This document shows, piece after piece, positions 41,440-53,674 of a DNA stretch of 64,000 bases. The stretch spans positions 1,058 through 65,057 of the forward strand of contig JADYYF010000044.1 of assembly GCA_020853795.1 (NCBI GenBank), read 5' to 3'. This DNA is from Candidatus Zixiibacteriota bacterium. GTDB taxonomy: Bacteria; Zixibacteria; MSB-5A5; CAIYYT01. The notes under the pieces were generated by a model. That model made no database searches and was not told the DNA's origin. It worked only from the letters and a program-made list of their open reading frames with translations. A program made the position numbers and the translations under genes. Each line of letters opens with the position of its first letter. Within the stretch, counting starts at the first letter, position 1.

Positions 41440-42276
41440 TCAATTTCCCATTACAACGTAGGACAAACACGCTCCAGTCGGTACTTCCTCTTCCCCTTGC
41501 AGCGACATTGGCACGATGCGCTTCCAGCCGCGACGACGGCCGGCGTAGGTTAGCGCCAGCCAGGCGGCGGAGCCGGGGAAGGCGAAGTGCGCGAGCCGGT
41601 CTCGCAGTACGGCAAAATCAAGACCGGCAAAGGCTGCCTCGACCCTCTGCCATCGCGCTTGCTGTTCGCCGTCGGCCAGGTCGATATCAATCTGCGTGCA
41701 CGATACAATCAGGCCGTTTCCCAATGACGGGTGGGCCAACACCTCGCCGATGCCCGTGGCGAGCTCGGCATCATCGATCCCGGCTACAATCGGAATCAAC
41801 CGAAAATCGCCGATCAGTTTCTGCAGCCACGGCAACATCGATTCGATGACAAATTCCGCTTGCCGGCCGCCCGTGTGCCCGCGCGCCGACATAACGACGC
41901 GAGGATGCAATTCGGAAAGGGACTTGGCCAACTCCAAGTCCAGGAACACTCGACCCAGCGGCGTCTCGTAAGCGCTGCCATGAAAAATCGACGCATGGTC
42001 AAACATGACCTCCTGCGCACTGGCGACGATCACGACCGTCGGATAGCGATGGCGATTGAGTGCACGCAGGGCGCCGATCCCCGGTCCCGCGACCAGCCGA
42101 GCCGGCGCAAATGGCGTCACAATCGCCCGCACCTCGCCCTTCGCCGACTGCGGTCGCCCGGAGGCCGCAATCCGTTGCTCCACTAATTCACTCAACTCCA
42201 GCGGGTCGGCGGGATAAAGCTTGCCGGCATAGGCCATCCGCCGGACTTCATTCGGTTTCTGCTCGTGGACTTCCAT
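41440..42276 (-). CDS. Memo-like (AmmeMemoRadiSam protein B) homolog with degenerate metal site
   Basis: RRMAYAGKLYP, YETPLGRV, IESMLPWLQ, LIPIVAG align with Memo motifs, but the conserved His positions are absent. Confidence 0.7.
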   Translation of the reverse strand: MEVHEQKPNEVRRMAYAGKLYPADPLELSELVEQRIAASGRPQSAKGEVRAIVTPFAPARLVAGPGIGALRALNRHRYPTVVIVASAQEVMFDHASIFHGSAYETPLGRVFLDLELAKSLSELHPRVVMSARGHTGGRQAEFVIESMLPWLQKLIGDFRLIPIVAGIDDAELATGIGEVLAHPSLGNGLIVSCTQIDIDLADGEQQARWQRVEAAFAGLDFAVLRDRLAHFAFPGSAAWLALTYAGRRRGWKRIVPMSLQGEEEVPTGACLSYVVMGN

Positions 42277-42450
42277 GGGTGCCCCAGAATACTCATCCGG
42301 GCGCGACGAAGCAAGTTGAGAGTTGCCGCTGCTGCACCGAAGCGACTGCTCAAGACTCCCCGGATTCAGCTTGTACCAGACAAAAGCTATCTTCTGAGCC
42401 GGACTGCAATGTCAGCGCCGCACCATCTTGTTGTCGTTCGGTGAATTTCC

Positions 42451-42479
42451 TTGACAAGCGTGCCGGCGTGTGGTATAGA
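42451..42479 (+). promoter_or_regulatory. tRNA promoter TTGACA-N17-TATAGA with TG extension
   Basis: TTGACA 42451-42456, TATAGA 42474-42479, tRNA starts 10 nt later. Confidence 0.75.
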
Positions 42480-42488
42480 GGAACCGAT

Positions 42489-42562
<74 letters not shown>

Positions 42563-42798
42563 TTTTATCAAACTCGTCTCCCCTGGGTATCCCATCCAAG
42601 TTCAGCTTAGACGGTTTCCTTGGCTCTTCACTTGAGCCTGAGGACTCGAACTCCCGCCGCCTAAGTAATCGGGCATCTCCCGACTCGCCTTCGCGAACGA
42701 CAGCGCCAGACCTGAGCCGCGCTTCTGAGGTGAGTCAGTGTCAACTCAGAATTAGCAAACTATGACAATAATTCTTTGAGTTCGACTTCAGAAAATAC

Positions 42799-42827
42799 TT
42801 GACTCAAAAGAGCGTGTTATGTAGACT
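42799..42827 (+). promoter_or_regulatory. sigma70-type promoter TTGACT-N17-TAGACT for the RiPP cluster
   Basis: TTGACT 42799-42804, 17-nt spacer, TAGACT 42822-42827. Confidence 0.65.
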
Positions 42828-43043
42828 AATGTATCGAAAAGTCCAGATTTGGAGCCGGTTGACAACGGCTTCTGAGTGAATCTGTTTCTCTGGATCACAG
42901 GGACGTCCTCGAACTCCGACCTGCAGTCAATAATCTACTAGTGGAGCGGGAGGTGTCCATAACTGACGTTGGCGTATCATGCATTATGATACGATGGGCC
43001 TGGTCCCATAGGTCACTACTAACCCACTACAGGAGGATTTGCA

Positions 43044-43157
43044 ATGATCTATTTGATCGATCCGCAGAATCCAGGCATCGAAGTCTGCATCTTCAAGTTC
43101 CTCTGTCCGAAGGATAGGGTCGTTCCGTGCTACGGAATCGATCCCGTCGAGATTTGA
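43044..43157 (+). CDS. RiPP precursor peptide, 37 aa: MIYLIDPQNPGIEVCIFKFLCPKDRVVPCYGIDPVEI (absent from the ORF track)
   Basis: Hand translation; AGGAGG RBS at 43031-43036, 7 nt before ATG; three Cys and a C-Y-G motif; followed by a hairpin and two radical SAM genes. Confidence 0.88.
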   Translation: MIYLIDPQNPGIEVCIFKFLCPKDRVVPCYGIDPVEI

Positions 43158-43169
43158 GGTGACGGATCC

Positions 43170-43196
43170 GCAGAGAGGGGCATCGCCCCTCTCTGC
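43170..43196 (+). terminator. 12-bp hairpin after the precursor (mRNA stabiliser or leaky terminator)
   Basis: GCAGAGAGGGGC-ATC-GCCCCTCTCTGC followed by CTTT. Confidence 0.75.
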
Positions 43197-43425
43197 CTTT
43201 GGTTGAGTTCCGGCAGATTCCTCCTCCCAGGAACAGCACAATTTCACTGACGCATTTCTTGCGAGCGAGGTGGTGCCACCAAGTTGAAATGGACACAGAC
43301 GACCCGAGTTCTCCTGACTTTGATCTTGCCGGATCCGTGCGAAGCTTTGAGGCGGTGGAGACAGTCGGGAATAAGCAAGATTCGATAGTGCGTTAGGTGC
43401 GTTTGCTGGTAGCGAGCATGACACG

Positions 43426-44775
43426 ATGAGCAGAGTATCACGCTACAATCATTTTCAACAATGGCAAGGCGGTTATCGGATCGCCTTCAATGCCTTCACC
43501 GGTGCCCTCGCCCTGATGACCGAGGACAACTTTCAAACATATCAGAAACTGGCGGCCAAGCTCTCCAACGGTAATTCTGCGCCAATCCTGACCGATGCGG
43601 AACGGGAGCTGCTTCAACAACTCGAGCATGGCCGCTTCGTTCATCCTGACGACTGTGACGAGTTGCAAGCACTCAAGTTCACCCACGGCAGCGCCCGCTT
43701 TGATCGCACCGCACTGGCCTTGATCGTTGCTCCCACTTTAGCCTGCAACATGGCCTGTCCCTACTGCTTCGAGAACAACAAGCGCGGCAAGATGACGCCG
43801 GAGATCGCCGATCAGATCGTCGGATTCGTCAGCCGCCAAGCCAAGACCCTGACTCAGCTTGATCTCACCTGGTACGGCGGCGAACCGCTGCTGGCCCTCG
43901 ATGTCATCGAAATCCTGTCGCGCCGCCTTATCGGAATGGCAAATGATGAGTCCTTCACTTATCGAGCCTCGATCATCACCAATGGCTATCTCCTGGATCG
44001 CGACAGCGTCGACACGTTGGTCGACCTGAAAGTCGGCGTGTGCCAGGTGACGCTGGACGGCCCCGCGCGGTTGCACAATATTCGGCGCCCGCTCAAGAAC
44101 GGAAGAGACAGCTTCCAGACGATCGTTGACAATCTCAAGTACGCTGCCGGCAGGTTGGTCGTCTCCGTGCGAGTGAACATCGACAAGAGCTTCAGTTCCG
44201 CCGACGTTGCCGAGTTGCTGACGGAACTAAAGGCCGCAGGCCTGCAGCAGCGCGTATCGGTCAACTTCGGAATGGTTGAGCCGTCGTCCGCCACTTGCGC
44301 CGCCGTCGCCGAAGCCTGCTATGAAATTGCCGATTTCTCGCAGGTGGAAATCGGATTTTATCGGCAATTGCTCGACAACGGCTATGGCGTTGAGAAGCTG
44401 CCCAGCCCCTGTGCGGTCTTCTGCATGGCGCAATTGGTCAACGCCTTTTTGGTCGATCCGGACGGGAATCTCTATCGCTGCTGGAACTACGTCGGCGATC
44501 CGGCGAAGACCATGGGGCATATCCGCGACAAGATTGACTATCAGAATGCGAATTTCGTCAAGCTCTTCGCTATTGATCCGTTTGTTGATCCGCTCTGTCG
44601 TGACTGCGACATTCTGCCGGTTTGCCTGGGGGGCTGCCCATCCAATCGCGCCGACCGCGGCCTGACCGGCGAGCAGGCCTGCCAGAGCTGGAAACACAAT
44701 CTTTCTCCGATGCTGGAAATTATTGCGCGCTCGCGAAGCCAGCGGGCGGCATCTACACCCAAGGAGCAATCATGA
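43426..44775 (+). CDS. Radical SAM/SPASM peptide maturase with N-terminal RRE-like extension
   Basis: About 95-aa N-terminal extension (SRYNHF...IAFNAFTGALALM); CNMACPYC; WYGGEPLL; TLDGP...HNIRR; SPASM cysteines CAVFC, YRCW, CRDCDILPVCLGGC. Confidence 0.92.
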   Translation: MSRVSRYNHFQQWQGGYRIAFNAFTGALALMTEDNFQTYQKLAAKLSNGNSAPILTDAERELLQQLEHGRFVHPDDCDELQALKFTHGSARFDRTALALIVAPTLACNMACPYCFENNKRGKMTPEIADQIVGFVSRQAKTLTQLDLTWYGGEPLLALDVIEILSRRLIGMANDESFTYRASIITNGYLLDRDSVDTLVDLKVGVCQVTLDGPARLHNIRRPLKNGRDSFQTIVDNLKYAAGRLVVSVRVNIDKSFSSADVAELLTELKAAGLQQRVSVNFGMVEPSSATCAAVAEACYEIADFSQVEIGFYRQLLDNGYGVEKLPSPCAVFCMAQLVNAFLVDPDGNLYRCWNYVGDPAKTMGHIRDKIDYQNANFVKLFAIDPFVDPLCRDCDILPVCLGGCPSNRADRGLTGEQACQSWKHNLSPMLEIIARSRSQRAASTPKEQS

Positions 44776-45884
44776 CCGACTTCAAGTTCTATCCACGTTC
44801 CGTAGTCTGGGAGACTACTTTTGCCTGCAACATGCGGTGTCTGCACTGCGGCACCGCTGCCGGCAAGAAACGGCCCGACGAACTGACCACCGCCGAAGCC
44901 CTGAACATGATCGACGAGCTGGCAGCGCTGGGAGCCGAAGACATCACGCTCTCCGGCGGCGAACCGCTCCTTCGGGATGACTGGCTGATCCTGGCCAAGC
45001 GAATCCGCGAGCGCGGCATGAAAGCCCTGATGATATCGAACGGCCTGGCCTTCTCCGATCAGGTGGTGCAGGATATCATGAGTGTGCCGTTGAACAAGGT
45101 CGGAGTGAGCTTTGACGGTACCGAGACGACGCACAACTACATCCGCCAGCGCGACGACAGTTTCAGCGGCGCGTTGAACGCCATGCGCCTGATGCGTAAG
45201 CACGGTTTCCGCCAGTTCTGCGCCGTGAGCCAGATCTCGAATATCAATATTGACGAGATGGATGCCATCCGCCGCATCCTGATCGATGTCGGCTGTCCTC
45301 AATGGCGAGTCCAGCTCTGCACCTCGACCGGCCGCATGCGGGACAACCGTGACTTGATCCTCTCGCTCGACAATTATCCGCGCCTGATTGACAAGCTGAT
45401 TAAACTGCAGGAACATGATGACGAAATCGTCATTGATGTCGGTGAGAACATTGGCTACTACGGTCAGGCCGGCAATCAACTGCGCCAGGGCAACCCGTAC
45501 TGGGGCTGCTATGCGGGCACCCGGATTCTCGGTATCGAATCCAACGGCGCCATCAAGGGATGTCTGTCGATGCCGGAGGAATTTGTCGAGGGCAACCTCC
45601 GCGAGAAGTCGCTGGCCGAAATCTGGAATAACCCGGACGGCTTTGCTTACAACCGCCAGTTTACGCGCGACACGGCGAGCGGCGAGTGCCATGACTGCCG
45701 GTACCTGCCGCTGTGCCGCGGCGGTTGTGCGACAACCTCGGTCTCGGCCACCGGCTGCCGCGCCGACAATCCCTACTGCATTTACCGAATGGAGCAGCAG
45801 CAAGGATTCGCAACGCCGCCGGACAGCGAGTATGTGGCCGCATTGCTGGCCAAATTCCCGCCGGTGGCGAAGGAAAGCCGGTAG
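44772..45884 (+). CDS. Second radical SAM/SPASM enzyme, resembling PlpX-type spliceases
   Basis: ATG 44772 (AAGGAG RBS, ATGA overlap); VWETTFACNMRCLHCG; GENIGYYG; GCYAG; LGIESNGAIKGCLSM; CHDCRYLPLCRGGC; DNPYCIYR; no N-terminal RRE. Confidence 0.85.
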   Translation: MTDFKFYPRSVVWETTFACNMRCLHCGTAAGKKRPDELTTAEALNMIDELAALGAEDITLSGGEPLLRDDWLILAKRIRERGMKALMISNGLAFSDQVVQDIMSVPLNKVGVSFDGTETTHNYIRQRDDSFSGALNAMRLMRKHGFRQFCAVSQISNINIDEMDAIRRILIDVGCPQWRVQLCTSTGRMRDNRDLILSLDNYPRLIDKLIKLQEHDDEIVIDVGENIGYYGQAGNQLRQGNPYWGCYAGTRILGIESNGAIKGCLSMPEEFVEGNLREKSLAEIWNNPDGFAYNRQFTRDTASGECHDCRYLPLCRGGCATTSVSATGCRADNPYCIYRMEQQQGFATPPDSEYVAALLAKFPPVAKESR

Positions 45885-45928
45885 TTTCGAGGCGCCGGAA
45901 CTTGAGCCCCCGGCGCCGGCGATCGCTC

Positions 45929-47689
45929 ATGTCATTCAGCACCACCAAGGCACGACGGCTGTGGCCGTTTCTCAAGCCGTATTGGCGCCACGAACTGGTC
46001 ACCCTGATCGTCATGCTGGCGATTACGGCGCTGATCCTCGCCGTGCCGTTGACGGTGCGGTATCTCGTCGACGTCCTCATACCCGAATTGATTCGATCCG
46101 GTGCCGCCGGCGCTATCGACCTCTCGCCGGTCGTCTGGTTCGGACTCGCCTTGGTCGCCATCTACCTGTTTCAGGTTGTCCTGACCGGGGTGCGCGACTA
46201 CTTCGTTGGTTTCATCGGGGCCCGCATCATTGCCGACATGCGCTCCCACCTGTTTGCGCATCTCGAACGGCTGTCACTGAGATTCTTCCAGACACACAAG
46301 GTCGGTGAGGTGATGTCGCGATTCCTCGCCGATGTCTCGCGCATTCAGGATCTCCTCTCGTCCACGCTGCTTGTGATTCTGAACAACTTCCTGCTCTTGT
46401 TCGGCGTGCTCGCCTATCTGCTCTATGACAACTGGCAACTGACTCTGATTGCAATCATTCCCGTGCCGGTGACGATTCTCGTGACCGGCGTCCTGAGCAA
46501 ACACATTCACTCGACGGCGCGCGGACTTCAGGCGACTGTAGCGACGCTGTCGGCCGCCATCCAGGAACTCCTGGTCGGACTCAAGATCGTCAAAGCCTTT
46601 GGCCGGGAGGATGCCGAGAACAAGAAAGTCGATGGGATCATGTCCGGCCTGACCGGATTCTACGTCAAGTTCAGCGTGCTCCGCTCGGTCGCCGGCAACG
46701 GCATTCAGTTTGTCAATGCGCTCGGTCCGATCATCGTTCTCTGCGCCGGTGCCTACCTGGTCGCCGTCGGCACGATGCAGCTCGGACAGCTCTTCGCCTT
46801 CTACATGTATCTGTCGCTGCTGTATAGCCCGGTCCAGAGTCTGGCCGGTTCGCGCATCGAGGTCGCCGCCGCCATGGCCTCCGTCGAGCGCATCTTTGAG
46901 TATCTCGACCTGCCCCCCGCAGTCGAGGAGGATCCCGCGCCGGTCCGGATTGGCAAGATCCGCGGCGATATCAAGTTCACCGAAGTGAATTTCTCCTACG
47001 GCGACTCCAATTTTCGCATCGACAACCTGAATCTCCACATCCCCGCCGGCGAAACCCTGGCGTTGGTGGGACCGTCCGGCTCCGGCAAGACGACAATTAT
47101 CAACTTGATCATGCGTTTCTACGACCCTGATTCCGGCATCATTGCCGTCGATGGCGTGGACCTGCGCCGGCTCTCCCTACAGACTCTGCGCGACAATATT
47201 GCGCTCGTGGATCAGGATCCGCTCCTGTTTAACCTGACGATCGGGGAGAATATCGCCTATTCCGATCCTGCCGCGACCAGCGAGCAAATCCAACGGGCGG
47301 CGCGGATCGCCAACATTCACGATTTCATCTCCGGTCTGCCGCACGGTTACGACAGCATGGTCGGCGAGCGCGGGGTAACCTTGTCCGGCGGCGAGAAACA
47401 GCGGATTTGTCTGGCGCGCGCCTTGTTGAAGGATCCGCCGATCCTGATCCTCGACGAGGCGACCAGCGCCCTGGATTCAATCTCGGAGCAACTGATTCAG
47501 GATGCGCTCGACAAGGTGCTGGTGGGGAAGACTGCCATCATCATTGCGCACCGCCTGGCGACTGTGCAGCGTGCCGACTGGATCATCGCCCTCGACGGCG
47601 GCCGCATCGTCGCCCAAGGAACGCACTCCGAGCTCCTGGGCTCGTCGGCACTCTATCAGGAGTTGTCGCACAAGCAATTGCGGGCGTAG
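45929..47689 (+). CDS. ABC exporter (TMD plus NBD), no C39 peptidase domain
   Basis: GPSGSGKTT, LSGGEKQR, ILDEATSALD, IIAHRL; ATG 45929. Confidence 0.93.
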   Translation: MSFSTTKARRLWPFLKPYWRHELVTLIVMLAITALILAVPLTVRYLVDVLIPELIRSGAAGAIDLSPVVWFGLALVAIYLFQVVLTGVRDYFVGFIGARIIADMRSHLFAHLERLSLRFFQTHKVGEVMSRFLADVSRIQDLLSSTLLVILNNFLLLFGVLAYLLYDNWQLTLIAIIPVPVTILVTGVLSKHIHSTARGLQATVATLSAAIQELLVGLKIVKAFGREDAENKKVDGIMSGLTGFYVKFSVLRSVAGNGIQFVNALGPIIVLCAGAYLVAVGTMQLGQLFAFYMYLSLLYSPVQSLAGSRIEVAAAMASVERIFEYLDLPPAVEEDPAPVRIGKIRGDIKFTEVNFSYGDSNFRIDNLNLHIPAGETLALVGPSGSGKTTIINLIMRFYDPDSGIIAVDGVDLRRLSLQTLRDNIALVDQDPLLFNLTIGENIAYSDPAATSEQIQRAARIANIHDFISGLPHGYDSMVGERGVTLSGGEKQRICLARALLKDPPILILDEATSALDSISEQLIQDALDKVLVGKTAIIIAHRLATVQRADWIIALDGGRIVAQGTHSELLGSSALYQELSHKQLRA

Positions 47690-48881: not shown

Positions 48882-51800
48882 CTAACGCAGCAGCACCATC
48901 GTCCGTCCGACCCGCGTCGATGAAGTCCTTAAGACGTAGTAGTAGACACCTGATGCTACCGGCAGCTGCCGATCGTCACGACCGTTCCACGTCAGTTGAG
49001 TCTGACCTGCCGGACGCGTCCCCTCCGATAACAGCCGGACTTGCTGACCGCGGATATTGTACACCGTCAACGAAATCCAGTCCGCTTTTGGCAAGTTGAA
49101 TTCGATAACCGTGGTCGGATTGAATGGGTTGGGACGATTTTGGGACAGTTCGACTGCATCAGGAAGAACCGCAGCTGGCGCGCCCGCCATCGCATCGAGA
49201 ATTCCGATCAGTTCAGTGCGCCCGCGGCTTTCCGGGCAATCAATCAGCGCCCGGCGGATCTTGCTCCAATCGAATTCACCCGCGTGCCCGGCAAGAGCGC
49301 CGTCGTCGCCGTCCTCACCGGCGCGCCCCATGCCGGCAATCGTCTTCAGCCAGTTGTCTGCGACTCCGCAGATGTCTTCGGCTTCCACGGCGCCGTTACC
49401 GTCGGCGTCGGCGTAGATCGCGGCGTAGGGCGACCAAGCATTTTCGCCCAGCACAACGCGCGCCAGGTGGCGCGACCAAAGCCAATCACCGTCGCCTCGT
49501 GGCGGACCCTGGATGTCGAAGTACCGTCCAATCGGCAAGACATCGCGTTCATCAACGATGCCATTATGGTCAGTATCACCCGGCCAAACTGCCGCTCCAG
49601 TGACAAACGTTCGCACCGAGTCGCGACTGCGCAATGGGATGCCGTCGGAAGTCGTCAGGCCCGGACTGATGTGGATGATCACCGAGTCAAGTTCGAGAAA
49701 TTCGTCTCCCGCAGCCGGGGCGACGATCAGCGTAACTCGATCATTCGCCGTCACGACGTCTGTGGTACAGCCGGCGCCTTTGCGACTCTCGACCACAACC
49801 GCCTCAAGTAGGGTCGCGGTGCTGATCAGGCCGTTAAATGGCAGGCTGATCACTTCATTGATCTGAACGCTCCCCAGGATCGGCGGTACTGTCAATGCCA
49901 GCGACTTGCCCGCCACTAGGGTCACACGCGCATTGCCGCCATTTGAGAGCAAGTCAATGTGGGCCCAATGGTATCCCGAGGCCAACTGTGAACTATCGAC
50001 CGCAACTGCAACCTTGATGCTCCCGCCGACCGCGATGGTCCCATTTCCGGGGCTGAGTGCGAGCCACGGAACATCGGCGCTTCCGGACCATTCGAGTTGC
50101 GCTTCGCCGTGATTCTCGATAGACAGCTCCGCTGCAACAGCGTCGATCACGAACCGGACGGTATCGGGCTGGACGGCGATAATCGCTCCGGGCCGGACCC
50201 CGATCGAGAGTGAGTTTGTATCCGCCAGAAATCCGTCACTGGCAATCAGGCTGACGGCATAGGTGCCGACTTGGTCAAGTTCCGGCGTGAAGGCAATCTC
50301 GCCGCTTCCGCTGCCGCGGTCTGTAAAGGTTGCGTGCGGCGGGACTCCCAGCGCGCTCAGGGTCAGGGGGTCGGAGTCGGGATCACTCGCCTCCACCGCG
50401 TGAATCAGTGTCTGACCGACGTGCATCACCGTATCCCGAACCGTGACCCATGCCGGCCGGCGATTGACATTGGTCACCGTAATTGTCACGCCGGCACTGA
50501 CAGAGAATACGCCGTCGGTTGCCGCAAACGTGACCACATGCACACCGCTTTGCGCATATGACGGCGTCCAATTGAACTGCCCGCTGCCGTCGCCGTGGTC
50601 GCTGAACGTAGCGCCTGGCGGCAGCCCCGAGGCGCTTAACGTTGGAATCGTGCCGTCCGGGTCGGTTGCCGTGACTTCAATCTCGATCGGCTGCTGCTCG
50701 GCAATTTCGCGGTCTGCGATCGGCGCAATCACCGGCGGACGATTCGTGCCGGTCACAACAATCGCAACGTCGGCGGTGTCGCTCAATGTGCCGTCGCTGG
50801 CCAAGAACCGCACCGCGTATTGTCCCGCCTGGCCAAAATCTGGCGCAAAGGTAAAGCGACCTCGTCCTCCACCAAGATCAGTAAACGTGGCGTTCTGCAT
50901 CAGGTTCACAGCGGTGAGCCTCGGCGCTGTGCCGTCCGGATCGCTGGCGCTGATCTCCAGCACGAGCGTCTCACCCTCGGCAACCGTATCATCCGCAATC
51001 GTCGCAAAGACCGGTGGACGGTTGACGTTGGTCACTGTTATCTGCACCGACATCGTATCGGCAAGTTCACCATCGTTGGCAAAGAAGGTCACGGTGTAGG
51101 TGCCTGCCTGTTCGTAAGAGGGGGTGAAGGTCAGACTGCCGCTGCCGTCGCCGTGATCAGCGAATGTCCCGTTCACCGGCAGCGCTCCGGTACTCAGATC
51201 GGGGATATCCTCATCCGGATCGTCAGCCGCCACCGCGAGAATCAGCGTTTGACTCTCCAGGATCGTCGTATCTGCCCGCTCGACGAACACCGGCGGCCGG
51301 TTGAGCGTGCAACCGACTGGATAGACACCCATCCCGCCACAGGTCGTATGTGCCGCCGCACACGGCGAAGTCGCCGCAATCGTGAAGTTACTGCCGGCAG
51401 CATTGCAGAAGAGTGGATCGGCGGCAATGTTCCCACGCAAACCGAGTTGTCGCGACAAGACCCCCACCCAGTTGCCGCCGGCATTGCCGTATATGTCGGT
51501 GCACGTGATCGTCATGCCGATGATGCCGTCGGCATCATCGATGCCCGGGCCGGTCGTGGAATTGGCGATGATGCAGTTCGCCATCATGATCGGACCGACA
51601 TAGTTCCCCTCAACGTTCGGGTCAATGCCGGTCTTGTTGTTCACAAATGTCGAGTGATTGATGCTCAATGTTCCGACCTGCGCCAGATAGAGCCCGCCGC
51701 CGGTCGATGCCGTGTTGCCGGAGAAGAAGCACGAATCGATGCTGACGGTGTTCTCCTCCGACCAATAGATCGCGATCGCCCCGCCGTTCGTCTGCGCGCG

Positions 51801-53504
51801 GTTACCGACGAGATCGCATTTGGTCACGGTCAGATTGTTGCCATAACTCTCGATCCCGTTCCCGGTGCCGTTGCTGATGGCACAGCCGGTAACCGTCAAG
51901 ACTGACTGCAGCGCGCGAATGGCACCGCTTTCTCCGAGAGCATTGGTTACTGACGACCCGAACTGGCAGCCGCTGATTGTTGCGGTAGTGCCGCTCCACA
52001 TGCGGAGTCCGTACCCGGAATTGCCAGTGATGCGGCCGCCGGTGATGGTGATATTCGCGCTCGTCTCCAGCTGCACGCCGGCACTGTCGTTGTTCTGAAT
52101 GACACAGTTCTCGATCCGGGCCTGCGAGCCGCTGCGGCAATAGATCCCCCGGCCGGTGCTGCCCTCGATTATGCAATTGCGGATCGTTGGCGAAGCCGTC
52201 CAGCAGAAGACAGCGGCACCATTGCCGCCGCTGGCGTTGCGGATCGTGAATCCCTGCAGCACGACTCCGCCAGGGGCGTAGTAATCATAATTGAAGCCGG
52301 GATAAAGCCCCTGACAATCGATGATCGTTGTTGCCGGACCCGCCGATGAGACAATACTCACCGGGCGTTCACCGAAGCTGCCGATGTTGCAGTTGGAGGC
52401 ACCGGTATAGGTCCCGGGCGCCACGCGCACGGTTCCCGGCGAGCGCAAACCGAACGCGGTATACGCGGCACTGATCGTCGCAAACTCCGAGGGCACATCG
52501 TGAGTCCCGGTGATGTCGAAGCGGTTTGCCGCAGAGAACGCAGAACCGATCCCCGTGTAGTTCGCCTGCACCCGCCAGTAATAATGCGTATTGAGGTAGC
52601 CGCCGGAATTTGGCAACGGCGTGGTGAGCGTGTAGGAACCCTCTGTGATTCCGGTATAGGTACGGGGTGTGGGAAAGCTCGCACTCGTGTCCACTTGGAG
52701 CGTGTAGTTGGCGCCGTCGTCCGACCAGGTGAAGGTGGGTAAGTTGTTCTCAATCGTGGCCAGATTGGCCGGCGAAATCAGCGTCGGCGTTACCACCGTG
52801 AATTTGATGCGGCGCACCAAGTCGACGTATATCGCGCCCTTGCCGCTGTAGGAGCCGATCAGTACGGAGACGGCGGCAAGATCCGAAAACGCGCCCGCTG
52901 TCGGTTCCTGAAGCGAAATCGTCGTCCAGGCGTTGGTGGGCAACGCACTCGTCCAGCCGACATAACTGAACACGGTATCGCCCGGCTTCATGTAGCCGAT
53001 CATCGCGTATGCCGTTGCGGAAAAGGACTTGTAGATGCGCGCTTCAATTCGACTGGCGCCATCCCAGGTGGCTGGGACCGGGGACTGGATCGACTTGATC
53101 TGCCAGCTATAGTGGCAGCTGTCCGTATAGTAACCGTCAAAGGCACAGGTCATTTGCGCCGATCCGGTTCCGCCAAAGCTGCTCCAAGCCAAGGCGAATG
53201 GCGATCCGACTGCTTTCATTCGCGTGCGCTCGACGCAGCGAACATCGGGGTAGTACTCCTGCACGGTATCGGCGGTGTGGAAAAAAGTCCAGCCGTCGAG
53301 ACTGCTGGTGAAGTTGTAGGCAAGGGTATCGTACCCTTGTGGCTCAAGCAGTTGCTCCCGTGCGAATACTGGTCCTTCTGGCTCCGTTTCAGTCGGTCGT
53401 CCAGCCAATGAAGATGGTGTCGAACCCTGAGCGAGCGAAGATAGCAGAAGACTCATCAGGCCGAGGAGAGCTGCCCGGACGGAATAAGGGACAAGCGAAC
53501 TCAT
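48882..53504 (-). CDS. Large secreted modular protein: beta-sandwich, FN3-like, right-handed beta-helix, four Ig/cadherin-like repeats, BACON-like, dockerin-like, FlgD/T9SS-like C-terminal domain
   Basis: Signal peptide; parallel beta-helix repeats; WPGDTDHNGIVD and DADGNGAVEAED; LSQNRPNPFNPTT...SGVYYYVL; ATG 53504 with GAGG RBS. Confidence 0.8.
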   Translation of the reverse strand: MSSLVPYSVRAALLGLMSLLLSSLAQGSTPSSLAGRPTETEPEGPVFAREQLLEPQGYDTLAYNFTSSLDGWTFFHTADTVQEYYPDVRCVERTRMKAVGSPFALAWSSFGGTGSAQMTCAFDGYYTDSCHYSWQIKSIQSPVPATWDGASRIEARIYKSFSATAYAMIGYMKPGDTVFSYVGWTSALPTNAWTTISLQEPTAGAFSDLAAVSVLIGSYSGKGAIYVDLVRRIKFTVVTPTLISPANLATIENNLPTFTWSDDGANYTLQVDTSASFPTPRTYTGITEGSYTLTTPLPNSGGYLNTHYYWRVQANYTGIGSAFSAANRFDITGTHDVPSEFATISAAYTAFGLRSPGTVRVAPGTYTGASNCNIGSFGERPVSIVSSAGPATTIIDCQGLYPGFNYDYYAPGGVVLQGFTIRNASGGNGAAVFCWTASPTIRNCIIEGSTGRGIYCRSGSQARIENCVIQNNDSAGVQLETSANITITGGRITGNSGYGLRMWSGTTATISGCQFGSSVTNALGESGAIRALQSVLTVTGCAISNGTGNGIESYGNNLTVTKCDLVGNRAQTNGGAIAIYWSEENTVSIDSCFFSGNTASTGGGLYLAQVGTLSINHSTFVNNKTGIDPNVEGNYVGPIMMANCIIANSTTGPGIDDADGIIGMTITCTDIYGNAGGNWVGVLSRQLGLRGNIAADPLFCNAAGSNFTIAATSPCAAAHTTCGGMGVYPVGCTLNRPPVFVERADTTILESQTLILAVAADDPDEDIPDLSTGALPVNGTFADHGDGSGSLTFTPSYEQAGTYTVTFFANDGELADTMSVQITVTNVNRPPVFATIADDTVAEGETLVLEISASDPDGTAPRLTAVNLMQNATFTDLGGGRGRFTFAPDFGQAGQYAVRFLASDGTLSDTADVAIVVTGTNRPPVIAPIADREIAEQQPIEIEVTATDPDGTIPTLSASGLPPGATFSDHGDGSGQFNWTPSYAQSGVHVVTFAATDGVFSVSAGVTITVTNVNRRPAWVTVRDTVMHVGQTLIHAVEASDPDSDPLTLSALGVPPHATFTDRGSGSGEIAFTPELDQVGTYAVSLIASDGFLADTNSLSIGVRPGAIIAVQPDTVRFVIDAVAAELSIENHGEAQLEWSGSADVPWLALSPGNGTIAVGGSIKVAVAVDSSQLASGYHWAHIDLLSNGGNARVTLVAGKSLALTVPPILGSVQINEVISLPFNGLISTATLLEAVVVESRKGAGCTTDVVTANDRVTLIVAPAAGDEFLELDSVIIHISPGLTTSDGIPLRSRDSVRTFVTGAAVWPGDTDHNGIVDERDVLPIGRYFDIQGPPRGDGDWLWSRHLARVVLGENAWSPYAAIYADADGNGAVEAEDICGVADNWLKTIAGMGRAGEDGDDGALAGHAGEFDWSKIRRALIDCPESRGRTELIGILDAMAGAPAAVLPDAVELSQNRPNPFNPTTVIEFNLPKADWISLTVYNIRGQQVRLLSEGTRPAGQTQLTWNGRDDRQLPVASGVYYYVLRTSSTRVGRTMVLLR
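50195..51302 (-). repeat. Four tandem 93-aa (279-nt) Ig-like repeats within the large protein
   Basis: Repeats begin with N-R-P/R-P at 51302, 51023, 50744 and 50465 (exact 279-nt period); DPD and DG motifs recur. Confidence 0.85.
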
Positions 53505-53674
53505 CAAAAACCTCAAGAGAATAGTTGTTGTGGAGAGATGTCGTGTCCGTGGATGACCTGATCCATTTTAAGGTAAATCATTGCCATAAAATAGCAAGCG
53601 AGATTAATGTCGCGCCCAAACGTTTGTTGGAGCCTTCATGTTCGGCCATCTAATGTCGATAAACCAATAAACGA

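Follow-up and report, generated by a model that had tools for sequence, protein, structure and literature searches.

A four-gene peptide cassette of Zixibacteria encoding a predicted Y-protein-independent tyramine splicease

We analyzed a 64,000-nucleotide stretch of contig JADYYF010000044.1 from a Candidatus Zixiibacteriota bacterium (assembly GCA_020853795.1), referred to here as the window, with respect to a gene at 44772..45884 on the plus strand that encodes a 370-aa radical S-adenosylmethionine (rSAM) enzyme with a SPASM domain. This enzyme, named rSAM-2, belongs to a four-gene cassette for a peptide that is made by the ribosome and modified after translation (RiPP), in which it follows a precursor peptide and another rSAM/SPASM enzyme (rSAM-1) and precedes an ABC exporter. 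We propose, with a probability of roughly 0.7, that rSAM-2 is a tyramine splicease that operates without a separate Y protein. The strongest evidence for this assignment is comparative, namely the conservation of the cassette among related bacteria and of a P-X-Y-G motif in the precursor peptides, and it is complemented by the family affinity of the enzyme.

A HMMER search with rSAM-2 against 1.84 billion representatives at 50% identity retrieved 581 proteins at E<=1e-30. Clustered at 90% identity, the homologs of rSAM-2 make up more than 1,400 clusters, of which the best 120 are described here; these are 59-95% identical to rSAM-2, and those with a source name are annotated as Zixibacteria. 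The recurring gene order is one or more peptides, rSAM-1, rSAM-2, an optional B12-binding rSAM enzyme and the ABC exporter. This order was seen in complete Zixibacteria chromosomes and long contigs (L081-L083), in 20-odd metagenome loci, and in three look-ups that were begun from rSAM-1 homologs (L115-L117). The two rSAM genes are adjacent in every locus with enough flanking sequence, with a 4-nt overlap of stop and start codons in 16 of 20 loci, and the exporter occupies the same position in L081, L083, L115 and L116. The flanking genes in the window have housekeeping functions (a PLP-dependent enzyme, Memo, a PfkB kinase, DprA, UPF0029 and PAP2) and differ from the flanks of related loci, so the cassette is delimited to four genes: the precursor, rSAM-1, rSAM-2 and the ABC exporter.

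The precursor gene (43044..43157, plus strand; 37 aa plus stop, MIYLIDPQNPGIEVCIFKFLCPKDRVVPCYGIDPVEI) is preceded by an AGGAGG ribosome-binding site at 43031..43036, 7 nt 5' of its ATG. Its product has no GDL motif and no match to any NCBIfam or Pfam family; in about 20 other loci, a homologous peptide is likewise encoded upstream of the two enzymes. When small open reading frames (ORFs) of the related loci were searched solely for the N-terminal pattern [MVL]-x-[YFW]-[LIVM]-[IVL]-[DETA]-P, 26 distinct peptides were obtained, and in all 26 a tag with the consensus M-[IVL]-[YF]-L-[IV]-[DE]-P stands at the extreme N-terminus (MIYLIDP in the window, 43044..43064, plus strand). P-X-Y-G occurs in 24 of these tag-selected peptides; of the other two, one carries P-I-Y-S and the second lacks the motif. 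The same pattern was shown by a further 8 peptides with a looser tag from more divergent loci, which were chosen via the motif itself. Over the 32 peptides with P-X-Y-G, the X residue is leucine in 17, cysteine in 8 and methionine in 7. In an alignment of 27 peptides anchored on the motif, Pro and Tyr are invariant (27/27 each) and Gly nearly so (26/27), followed by Ile, Val, Thr or Leu. The stretch from the tag to the motif varies in length and composition. Each family peptide has between one and five cysteines upstream of the motif, and the total length is 31-46 aa.

The initial annotation had placed a Pro28-Cys29-Tyr30-Gly31 sequence in the 37-aa precursor, and it is indeed there (43125..43136, plus strand), at what we predict to be the splice site. 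A lone C-Y-G in one peptide would be unremarkable; it gains significance because P-X-Y-G is conserved in the tag-selected set, so that Tyr30-Gly31 falls inside a conserved motif. Cys29 itself is not a special or conserved feature. In the L085 locus, whose enzyme shares 85% identity across the matched region, the window peptide recurs with three substitutions, one of them Leu for Cys29; together with the choice of Leu, Cys or Met elsewhere, this places Cys29 at the variable X position and shows that it is not a conserved cross-link partner. A nearby precursor with an X-Y-G sequence, as expected for a splicease, is thus present both in the window and beside the homologous and distantly related enzymes. 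Family cores such as CKIKPLYGIIV, CRIKPMYGVPP and RVVPCYGIDP of the window share the pattern [basic/hydrophobic]-P-X-Y-G-[I/V/L]-(P/I/D) and thereby resemble the minimal splice tag of PlpA2, PIRPLYGLPI; MYG and LYG are natural sites of PlpXY (PMC10533398).

The enzyme itself displays the expected architecture. The five motifs on which its likeness to spliceases had been proposed all occur in the translation of 44772-45884: VWETTFACNMRCLHCG at residues 12-27, GENIGYYG at 224-231, LGIESNGAIKGCLSM at 253-267, GNLREKSLAEIW at 274-285 and DNPYCIYR at 332-339. Pfam detects the radical SAM core and the SPASM domain that are characteristic of spliceases (Radical_SAM, 82.2 bits; SPASM, 38.7 bits). The CX3CX2C cluster motif (Cys19, Cys23 and Cys26; 44826..44849, plus strand) is invariant in the family alignment, as are the cysteines of the SPASM region (45507..45779, plus strand; Pfam SPASM at residues 246-309), namely Cys246, Cys264, C306-X2-C309-X5-C315-X3-C319 and Cys336. 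Among the NCBIfam models, the top match is TIGR03913, the GDL-motif peptide-associated rSAM/SPASM maturase (250.7 bits, 2e-74), followed by TIGR04103, the nif11-class peptide rSAM maturase 3 (245.1 bits, 9.7e-73), on which the InterPro entry IPR026482, that is, the PlpX family, is presumably built. PlpX, the founding splicease, belongs to IPR026482, a subclass of the rSAM/SPASM enzymes (PMC11002830). Lower scores were obtained for TIGR04133 (183.3 bits), NirJ2 (162), AhbD (154.5), MftC (142.7), AhbC (130.6) and NirJ (128.3). The two leading families are also the only ones to reach E<=1e-90 among the 115 nearest representatives, with six members each, and 9 of 10 sampled representatives match only these two at E<=1e-60 (208-481 bits), the tenth (P0149) matching none. 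The likeness to PlpX and the GDL-motif families recorded in the initial annotation is thus upheld at the level of family affinity.

rSAM-1 (449 aa; 43426..44775, plus strand) is a predicted thioether-forming maturase of the Cys-rich-peptide (Clo7bot/CteB-like) type. Its best NCBIfam families, TIGR04334 (Clo7bot; 344.4 bits against a cut-off of 600), TIGR04463 (288.5 bits) and CefB (226.4 bits), all fall below their cut-offs, and all are maturases of Cys-rich peptides. The thioether-forming CteB is both its best sequence match in the PDB (5wgg) and its best Foldseek match, over the full length (5why/5wgg). In the AlphaFold2 (AF2) model, which has a predicted local distance difference test (pLDDT) score of 85, and of 83-93 in the N-terminal block, strands at residues 2-4, 8-12, 18-22 and 27-31 are followed by helices at 33-47, 57-68 and 79-91, after which the rSAM barrel begins. 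Since the β3-α3 order defines RiPP recognition elements (RREs; PMC12710340), residues 1-91 (43426..43698, plus strand) constitute a predicted RRE-like domain, whereas Pfam PqqD/RRE models detected none in residues 1-98. The AF2 model and the CteB match accordingly assign to rSAM-1 the features of thioether maturases: an RRE, the rSAM core, a SPASM domain and a Cys-containing core peptide. We predict that rSAM-1 probably forms thioethers from Cys15 and Cys21, the conserved cysteines upstream of the motif in the precursor.

More distant relatives of rSAM-2 that lack an adjacent rSAM-1 bear on which enzyme would act at which site. In a low-GC organism (L107 and L109), a 379-aa relative, 47% identical over a C-terminal match of 116 residues, is preceded by Pro-rich proteins starting with MTIAQPVYGVP and MTLAQPLYGVP (~241 and ~123 aa, at 1633-2409 and 2819-3190 of L107 and also in L109). 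Both may be splicease substrates of protein size whose site lies at the extreme N-terminus. Upstream of a 44% identical relative (L111) lies a Cys-free peptide, MFPFIDPNLIIKLGYGILTAISRDYMPELW, which begins with MFPFIDP. The 43% identical relative in L112 is followed by two peptides with helical-looking leaders that contain AMYGV, VRYGI, TEYGV, TDYGI and PRYGV and end with AMYGVDPDPDPVVRYGIGF and TEYGVVTDYGIPAPRYGVGF. The presence of XYG peptides next to rSAM-2-type enzymes in loci without rSAM-1 points to rSAM-2, and not rSAM-1, as the enzyme for the Y-G site. Other distant loci contributed less: the contig of P0126 (L114) is too short to inform on context, and L001, L003 and L005 have a high GC content and many spurious ORFs that make substrate calls unreliable, a divergent ORF of L001 ending with AGLLYGIP being a weak hint.

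The initial annotation had noted that PlpX needs PlpY but that no separate PqqD/PlpY gene is visible here. The observation itself was confirmed, as the ORF list and Pfam revealed no PqqD/PlpY-like gene within 42564-47689, where the cassette leaves gaps only at 43158-43425 and 45885-45928; the former gap holds a hairpin and a 65-aa ORF with a TTG start (43199-43396) that matches no Pfam family. The small PqqD-like Y gene that stands beside X in type I (ternary) systems is therefore missing from this cassette. Its absence is, however, ordinary for the class, since the Y protein is present and needed only in cyanobacterial type I systems and hundreds of later, non-cyanobacterial pathways do without it (Richter et al. 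2024, PMC11414181). How the substrate would be recognized can be approached by analogy. In the binary RhaXA system, a leader α-helix is predicted to occupy the Y site (PMC11414181), while PlpXY and engineered RhaX recognize core-derived tags without a leader (PMC11414181, PMC10533398). By analogy with leader-independent PlpXY, rSAM-2 may recognize a core tag; recognition may instead go through the N-terminal tag itself, given that the Cys-free L111 peptide also has FIDP, or, as the initial annotation had suggested, through the RRE of rSAM-1, for which MIYLIDP would serve as a binding strand. The strict coupling of the rSAM-1 and rSAM-2 genes is compatible with the last route, although it is not proof of it.

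Several observations weigh against the splicease assignment. The scores of rSAM-2 lie far under both curated cut-offs (250.7 bits against 591.75 for TIGR03913 and 245.1 against 725 for TIGR04103), so rSAM-2 is not a member of either family, and its alignment spans positions 12-358 of 477 and 6-349 of 412 of the respective profiles, leaving 60-120 C-terminal positions unmatched. Its own family collapses into a single 50% representative (P0121, 58% identical), with the next at 44%; outside this family, identity amounts to ~35-45% over the full length, with a maximum of 45%, and none of these neighbours is tied to a characterized enzyme. The family peptides have only a 7-residue tag without an obvious helix, unlike the leader of RhaXA. 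Two of them lack Y-G altogether, at L083 3141-3281 (ending KYKPIYSTPLT) and L117 3485-3595 (MIFLIEPSRVNCGICPTVYWTKCPHRFAVIEEETTL); both loci also encode P-X-Y-G peptides, and the two exceptions may be substrates of rSAM-1 only. No report of a spliced Cys at X was found in the literature searched. Finally, P0124, a 41% identical paralog from the same sample as L081 (L113 3893-5092), adjoins a Tyr-free 29-aa ORF and has no XYG neighbour; yet its SPASM cysteines are degenerate (GDGSG for GCYAG, KGAAEM for KGCLSM), and P0124 may have degenerated or been repurposed.

The low scores, the missing C-terminal profile part and the position of the family on a distinct deep branch also lend weight to the principal rival, namely that rSAM-2 performs another radical reaction at the Tyr of P-X-Y-G, such as a cross-link (cyclophane, C-S or C-O), an epimerization or a hydroxylation. 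The fold does not discriminate: SkfB is the best PDB sequence match, SkfB, PqqE and SuiB are the best fold matches, these similar rSAM/SPASM enzymes have diverse activities, and there is no splicease among solved structures, so that structure comparison is silent on the reaction. Nevertheless, variation of X (L, C, M) beside fixed P, Y and G is the published signature of an XYG splice site and not that of a cross-link partner, there is the likeness of the motif to the PlpA2 tag, for which splicing is proven (PMC10533398), and the nearest sequence neighbours adjoin multi-XYG peptides typical of spliceotides; we thus consider another chemistry improbable. Exchanged roles, with rSAM-1 acting on the Y-G site and rSAM-2 on the cysteines or as an inactive partner, would be conceivable insofar as neither enzyme is directly assigned to either site, but they are very unlikely in view of the affinity of rSAM-1 to maturases of Cys-rich peptides and to CteB, the Cys-free XYG peptide next to the rSAM-2-type enzyme of L111, and the retention of all cluster-binding cysteines in rSAM-2. 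A different question within the splicease assignment, and not an exclusive alternative to it, is whether splicing depends on the RRE of rSAM-1 doing the job of PlpY. The rSAM-1 model has the β3-α3 domain and the rSAM-2 model none (pLDDT 80, the barrel starting at residues 10-14), the two genes stand side by side in every locus examined and overlap by 4 nt in 16 of 20, and a leader this short could not form the helix used by binary RhaXA (PMC11414181). Such a dependence remains doubtful considering that the relatives in L107, L111 and L112 adjoin XYG substrates without rSAM-1, that MFPFIDP in L111 suggests a tag read by the splicease-type enzyme itself, and that core-derived tags can be used without a leader by PlpXY and engineered RhaX.

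The last alternative, a heme or cofactor enzyme of the NirJ/AhbC/AhbD type placed beside a RiPP maturase by chance, can be dismissed almost entirely. The NirJ2, AhbD, AhbC and NirJ models do match rSAM-2 significantly, but their 128-162 bits are weaker than the scores of the two leading families and compare with cut-offs of 500-650. Clustering with such enzymes had been set beforehand as the outcome that would overturn the splicease proposal. We constructed a neighbor-joining (NJ) tree of 235 sequences over 328 trimmed columns, which contained outgroups but none of the proven spliceases (PlpX, PcpX, RhaX and the pairs of Scott et al.). The outgroups were distant loci (<=41% identity, no Zixibacteria among the matches listed) taken from a scan of genome contigs with the family alignment, in which generic rSAM motifs were selected, and their labels (AhbD, AhbC/NirJ1 and TIGR04133) were assigned by sampling. 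In this tree, 75 AhbD/AhbC/NirJ/TIGR04133-like sequences form one exclusive clade, whereas rSAM-2 falls in the other, outgroup-free clade; the overturning outcome did not occur. No heme or tetrapyrrole-pathway genes were found among the neighbours of rSAM-2, and its gene is tied to the peptide, the maturase and the exporter in all related Zixibacteria loci examined. Membership in the NirJ/AhbC/AhbD group is effectively refuted.

Given a splicease function of rSAM-2, we infer a scheme that covers both reactions, their order, the enzyme acting at each site, tag recognition and bioactivity. More of the peptide would be made than of the enzymes, the hairpin behind its gene serving as a partial terminator. 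The RRE of rSAM-1 would dock the MIYLIDP strand, and one or more thioether rings would be formed from Cys15 and Cys21. rSAM-2 would then act at the P-X-Y-G-[I/V] site close to the C-terminus of the peptide and excise Tyr30 with the exception of its carbonyl carbon, the net loss being C8H9NO (135.07 Da). The leftover carbon would be joined to the carbonyl of Cys29, giving a Cys-derived α-keto-β-amino (ketoamide) residue followed by Gly31; the net splicease reaction is described in PMC9811515 and PMC10533398. The product would be exported by the ABC transporter, and because the cassette encodes no leader peptidase, the short tag may stay on the peptide or be removed elsewhere. Characterized spliceotides are inhibitors of Ser and Cys proteases in their spliced form only (PMC11626197), which makes a protease-inhibitor role the best guess; by this analogy, the product would probably be a protease inhibitor with a ketoamide warhead. 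A more speculative extension, which we regard as unlikely, is an obligate complex of rSAM-1 and rSAM-2 in which the RRE reads the 7-residue tag and activates the splicease, and in which splicing at Cys as X yields a ketoamide residue with a free or bridged thiol beside the electrophilic ketone. If true, the complex would activate a splicease in a third way, besides PlpY and the leader helix, and the Cys-derived ketoamide could permit reactions not known so far from spliceotides, for example an internal hemithioketal or the loss of the C-terminal tail by an N-to-S acyl shift.

Remaining features of the locus concern gene boundaries, expression and export. A GC-rich hairpin with 12 perfectly paired bp and a weak T tail (43170..43196, plus strand) starts 13 nt past the precursor stop and may act as a partial terminator or attenuator that sets the ratio of peptide to enzymes. 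The ATG of rSAM-2 at 44772 overlaps the stop codon of rSAM-1 (ATGA) and has AAGGAG 6 nt upstream; the mechanical ORF list opens this frame at a TTG at 44622, whereas homologs start at the position equivalent to the ATG. The exporter (45929..47689, plus strand; ~586 aa) is a fused permease and ATPase of the MsbA-like type (ABC_membrane and ABC_tran), starts with MSFSTTK, and has no N-terminal C39 peptidase domain according to domain searches. A tRNA-Met gene (42488-42563) lies directly upstream of the cassette operon and ends 480 nt before the precursor, and the GC content is 0.551 in the 2-kb bin 42001-44000 compared to 0.58-0.60 in its surroundings. The cassette may therefore have its place at an insertion point associated with the tRNA. 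Further downstream, the minus strand at 48882-53516 encodes a 1,544-aa secreted protein unrelated to the cassette, which was annotated by eye only and has a right-handed β-helix-like region, four cadherin-like repeats and a C-terminal sorting-domain-like tail containing NPFNPTTVIEFNLP.

Variants of the cassette in other loci include additional genes. A B12-binding rSAM enzyme of ~476 aa (PF02310 and PF04055) is encoded between rSAM-2 and the exporter in L081 (6119-7549) and L082 (6120-7553). It is not present in the window; candidate ORFs of 473-546 aa, recognized by size only, occupy this place in L091, L099, L100, L103, L104, L105 and L110. This enzyme may add C-methylation in the variants that carry it. 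A Tricorn-type protease gene (Tricorn_N, PDZ_Tricorn and Peptidase_S41) is located divergently upstream of the cassette in L083 (1-1622, minus strand) and L115 (1-2442, minus strand), and a serpin-domain gene is found upstream in a third genome (L082 2875-3519); the window has neither neighbour. Such genes are suggestive in that they would fit a protease-inhibitor peptide, or they may be a coincidence.

The reaction class, the XYG rule and systems without a Y protein are already published. The list of Scott et al. 2022, in the form in which it is cited in PMC10533398 and PMC10849128, comprises 27 validated and 939 predicted splicease systems, and its mining used UniProt reference proteomes as described in PMC10849128. 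The Zixibacteria type may be on this list despite the restriction to reference proteomes. Literature searches combining Zixibacteria with RiPP and splicease with thioether returned nothing on this cassette, and no link of Zixibacteria or of a thioether-type rSAM enzyme to spliceases was found in the literature searched. We conclude that rSAM-2 is very probably a splicease and thus of a known enzyme class, while its four-gene setting, common in uncultured Zixibacteria, is an arrangement for which no description was found. Spliceases are among the few known routes to β-amino acids in ribosomal peptides, and they are used as tools of protein engineering and to obtain ketoamide inhibitors of proteases. 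The cassette would add to them a large phylum-specific subfamily, given its number of clusters, with unusually small substrates (31-46 aa including the 7-residue tag) that are attractive for engineering, a natural combination of thioether rings and a ketoamide warhead, and a spliced position that is naturally occupied by Cys. By itself it reveals no new enzymology, and the absence of PlpY, puzzling at first, was already explained in the literature.

Among the closest known systems are PlpX/PcpX with PlpY/PcpY, the type I cyanobacterial tyramine spliceases (Pleurocapsa), reportedly described by Morinaka et al. (2018, Science 359:779). Both they and rSAM-2 are rSAM/SPASM enzymes associated with X-Y-G preceded by Pro and followed, after Gly, by I/V/L-Pro, as in PIRPLYGLPI of PlpA2 compared to KIKPLYGI and RIKPMYGVP of the family described here, and Leu or Met is a natural X in both. 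In contrast, rSAM-2 has no Y protein, counts only 370 aa and lacks the C-terminal profile part, its family is paired obligatorily with a second rSAM enzyme, X is Cys in the window, and precursors of 31-46 aa with a 7-residue tag replace the ~100-aa Nif11/NHLP leaders. The type II binary enzymes RhaX, RasX and RcsX of Rheinheimera likewise do without a Y protein and splice at MYG or LYG; cysteines are present in their cores, too, and their products are ketoamide protease inhibitors (PMC11414181, PMC11626197). However, the leader helix of RhaA is predicted to dock at the Y site, for which the window tag of seven residues cannot form a comparable helix, and the Rheinheimera clusters have no thioether-type rSAM enzyme, their cysteines forming a disulfide; RhaX and rSAM-2 are compared here by description only. 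TIGR03913 is the top match of rSAM-2 and shares the rSAM plus SPASM architecture, but the window peptide has no GDL motif and the score is far under the cut-off. NirJ, AhbC and AhbD have the general rSAM/SPASM fold in common with rSAM-2, which differs by its place in a peptide and exporter operon without tetrapyrrole-pathway neighbours. On the side of rSAM-1, CteB, the SCIFF/ranthipeptide thioether synthase (5WGG/5WHY), and TIGR04334 share with it an RRE-like domain, the rSAM core, a SPASM domain and Cys-containing substrates, at an identity of ~17% to CteB in the structural alignment. Against this background, the Zixibacteria cassette is distinguished by a minimal splicease-like enzyme of 370 aa, its obligatory coupling to an RRE-bearing CteB-like rSAM enzyme, very short substrates with a tag, and the frequent natural occurrence of Cys at X.

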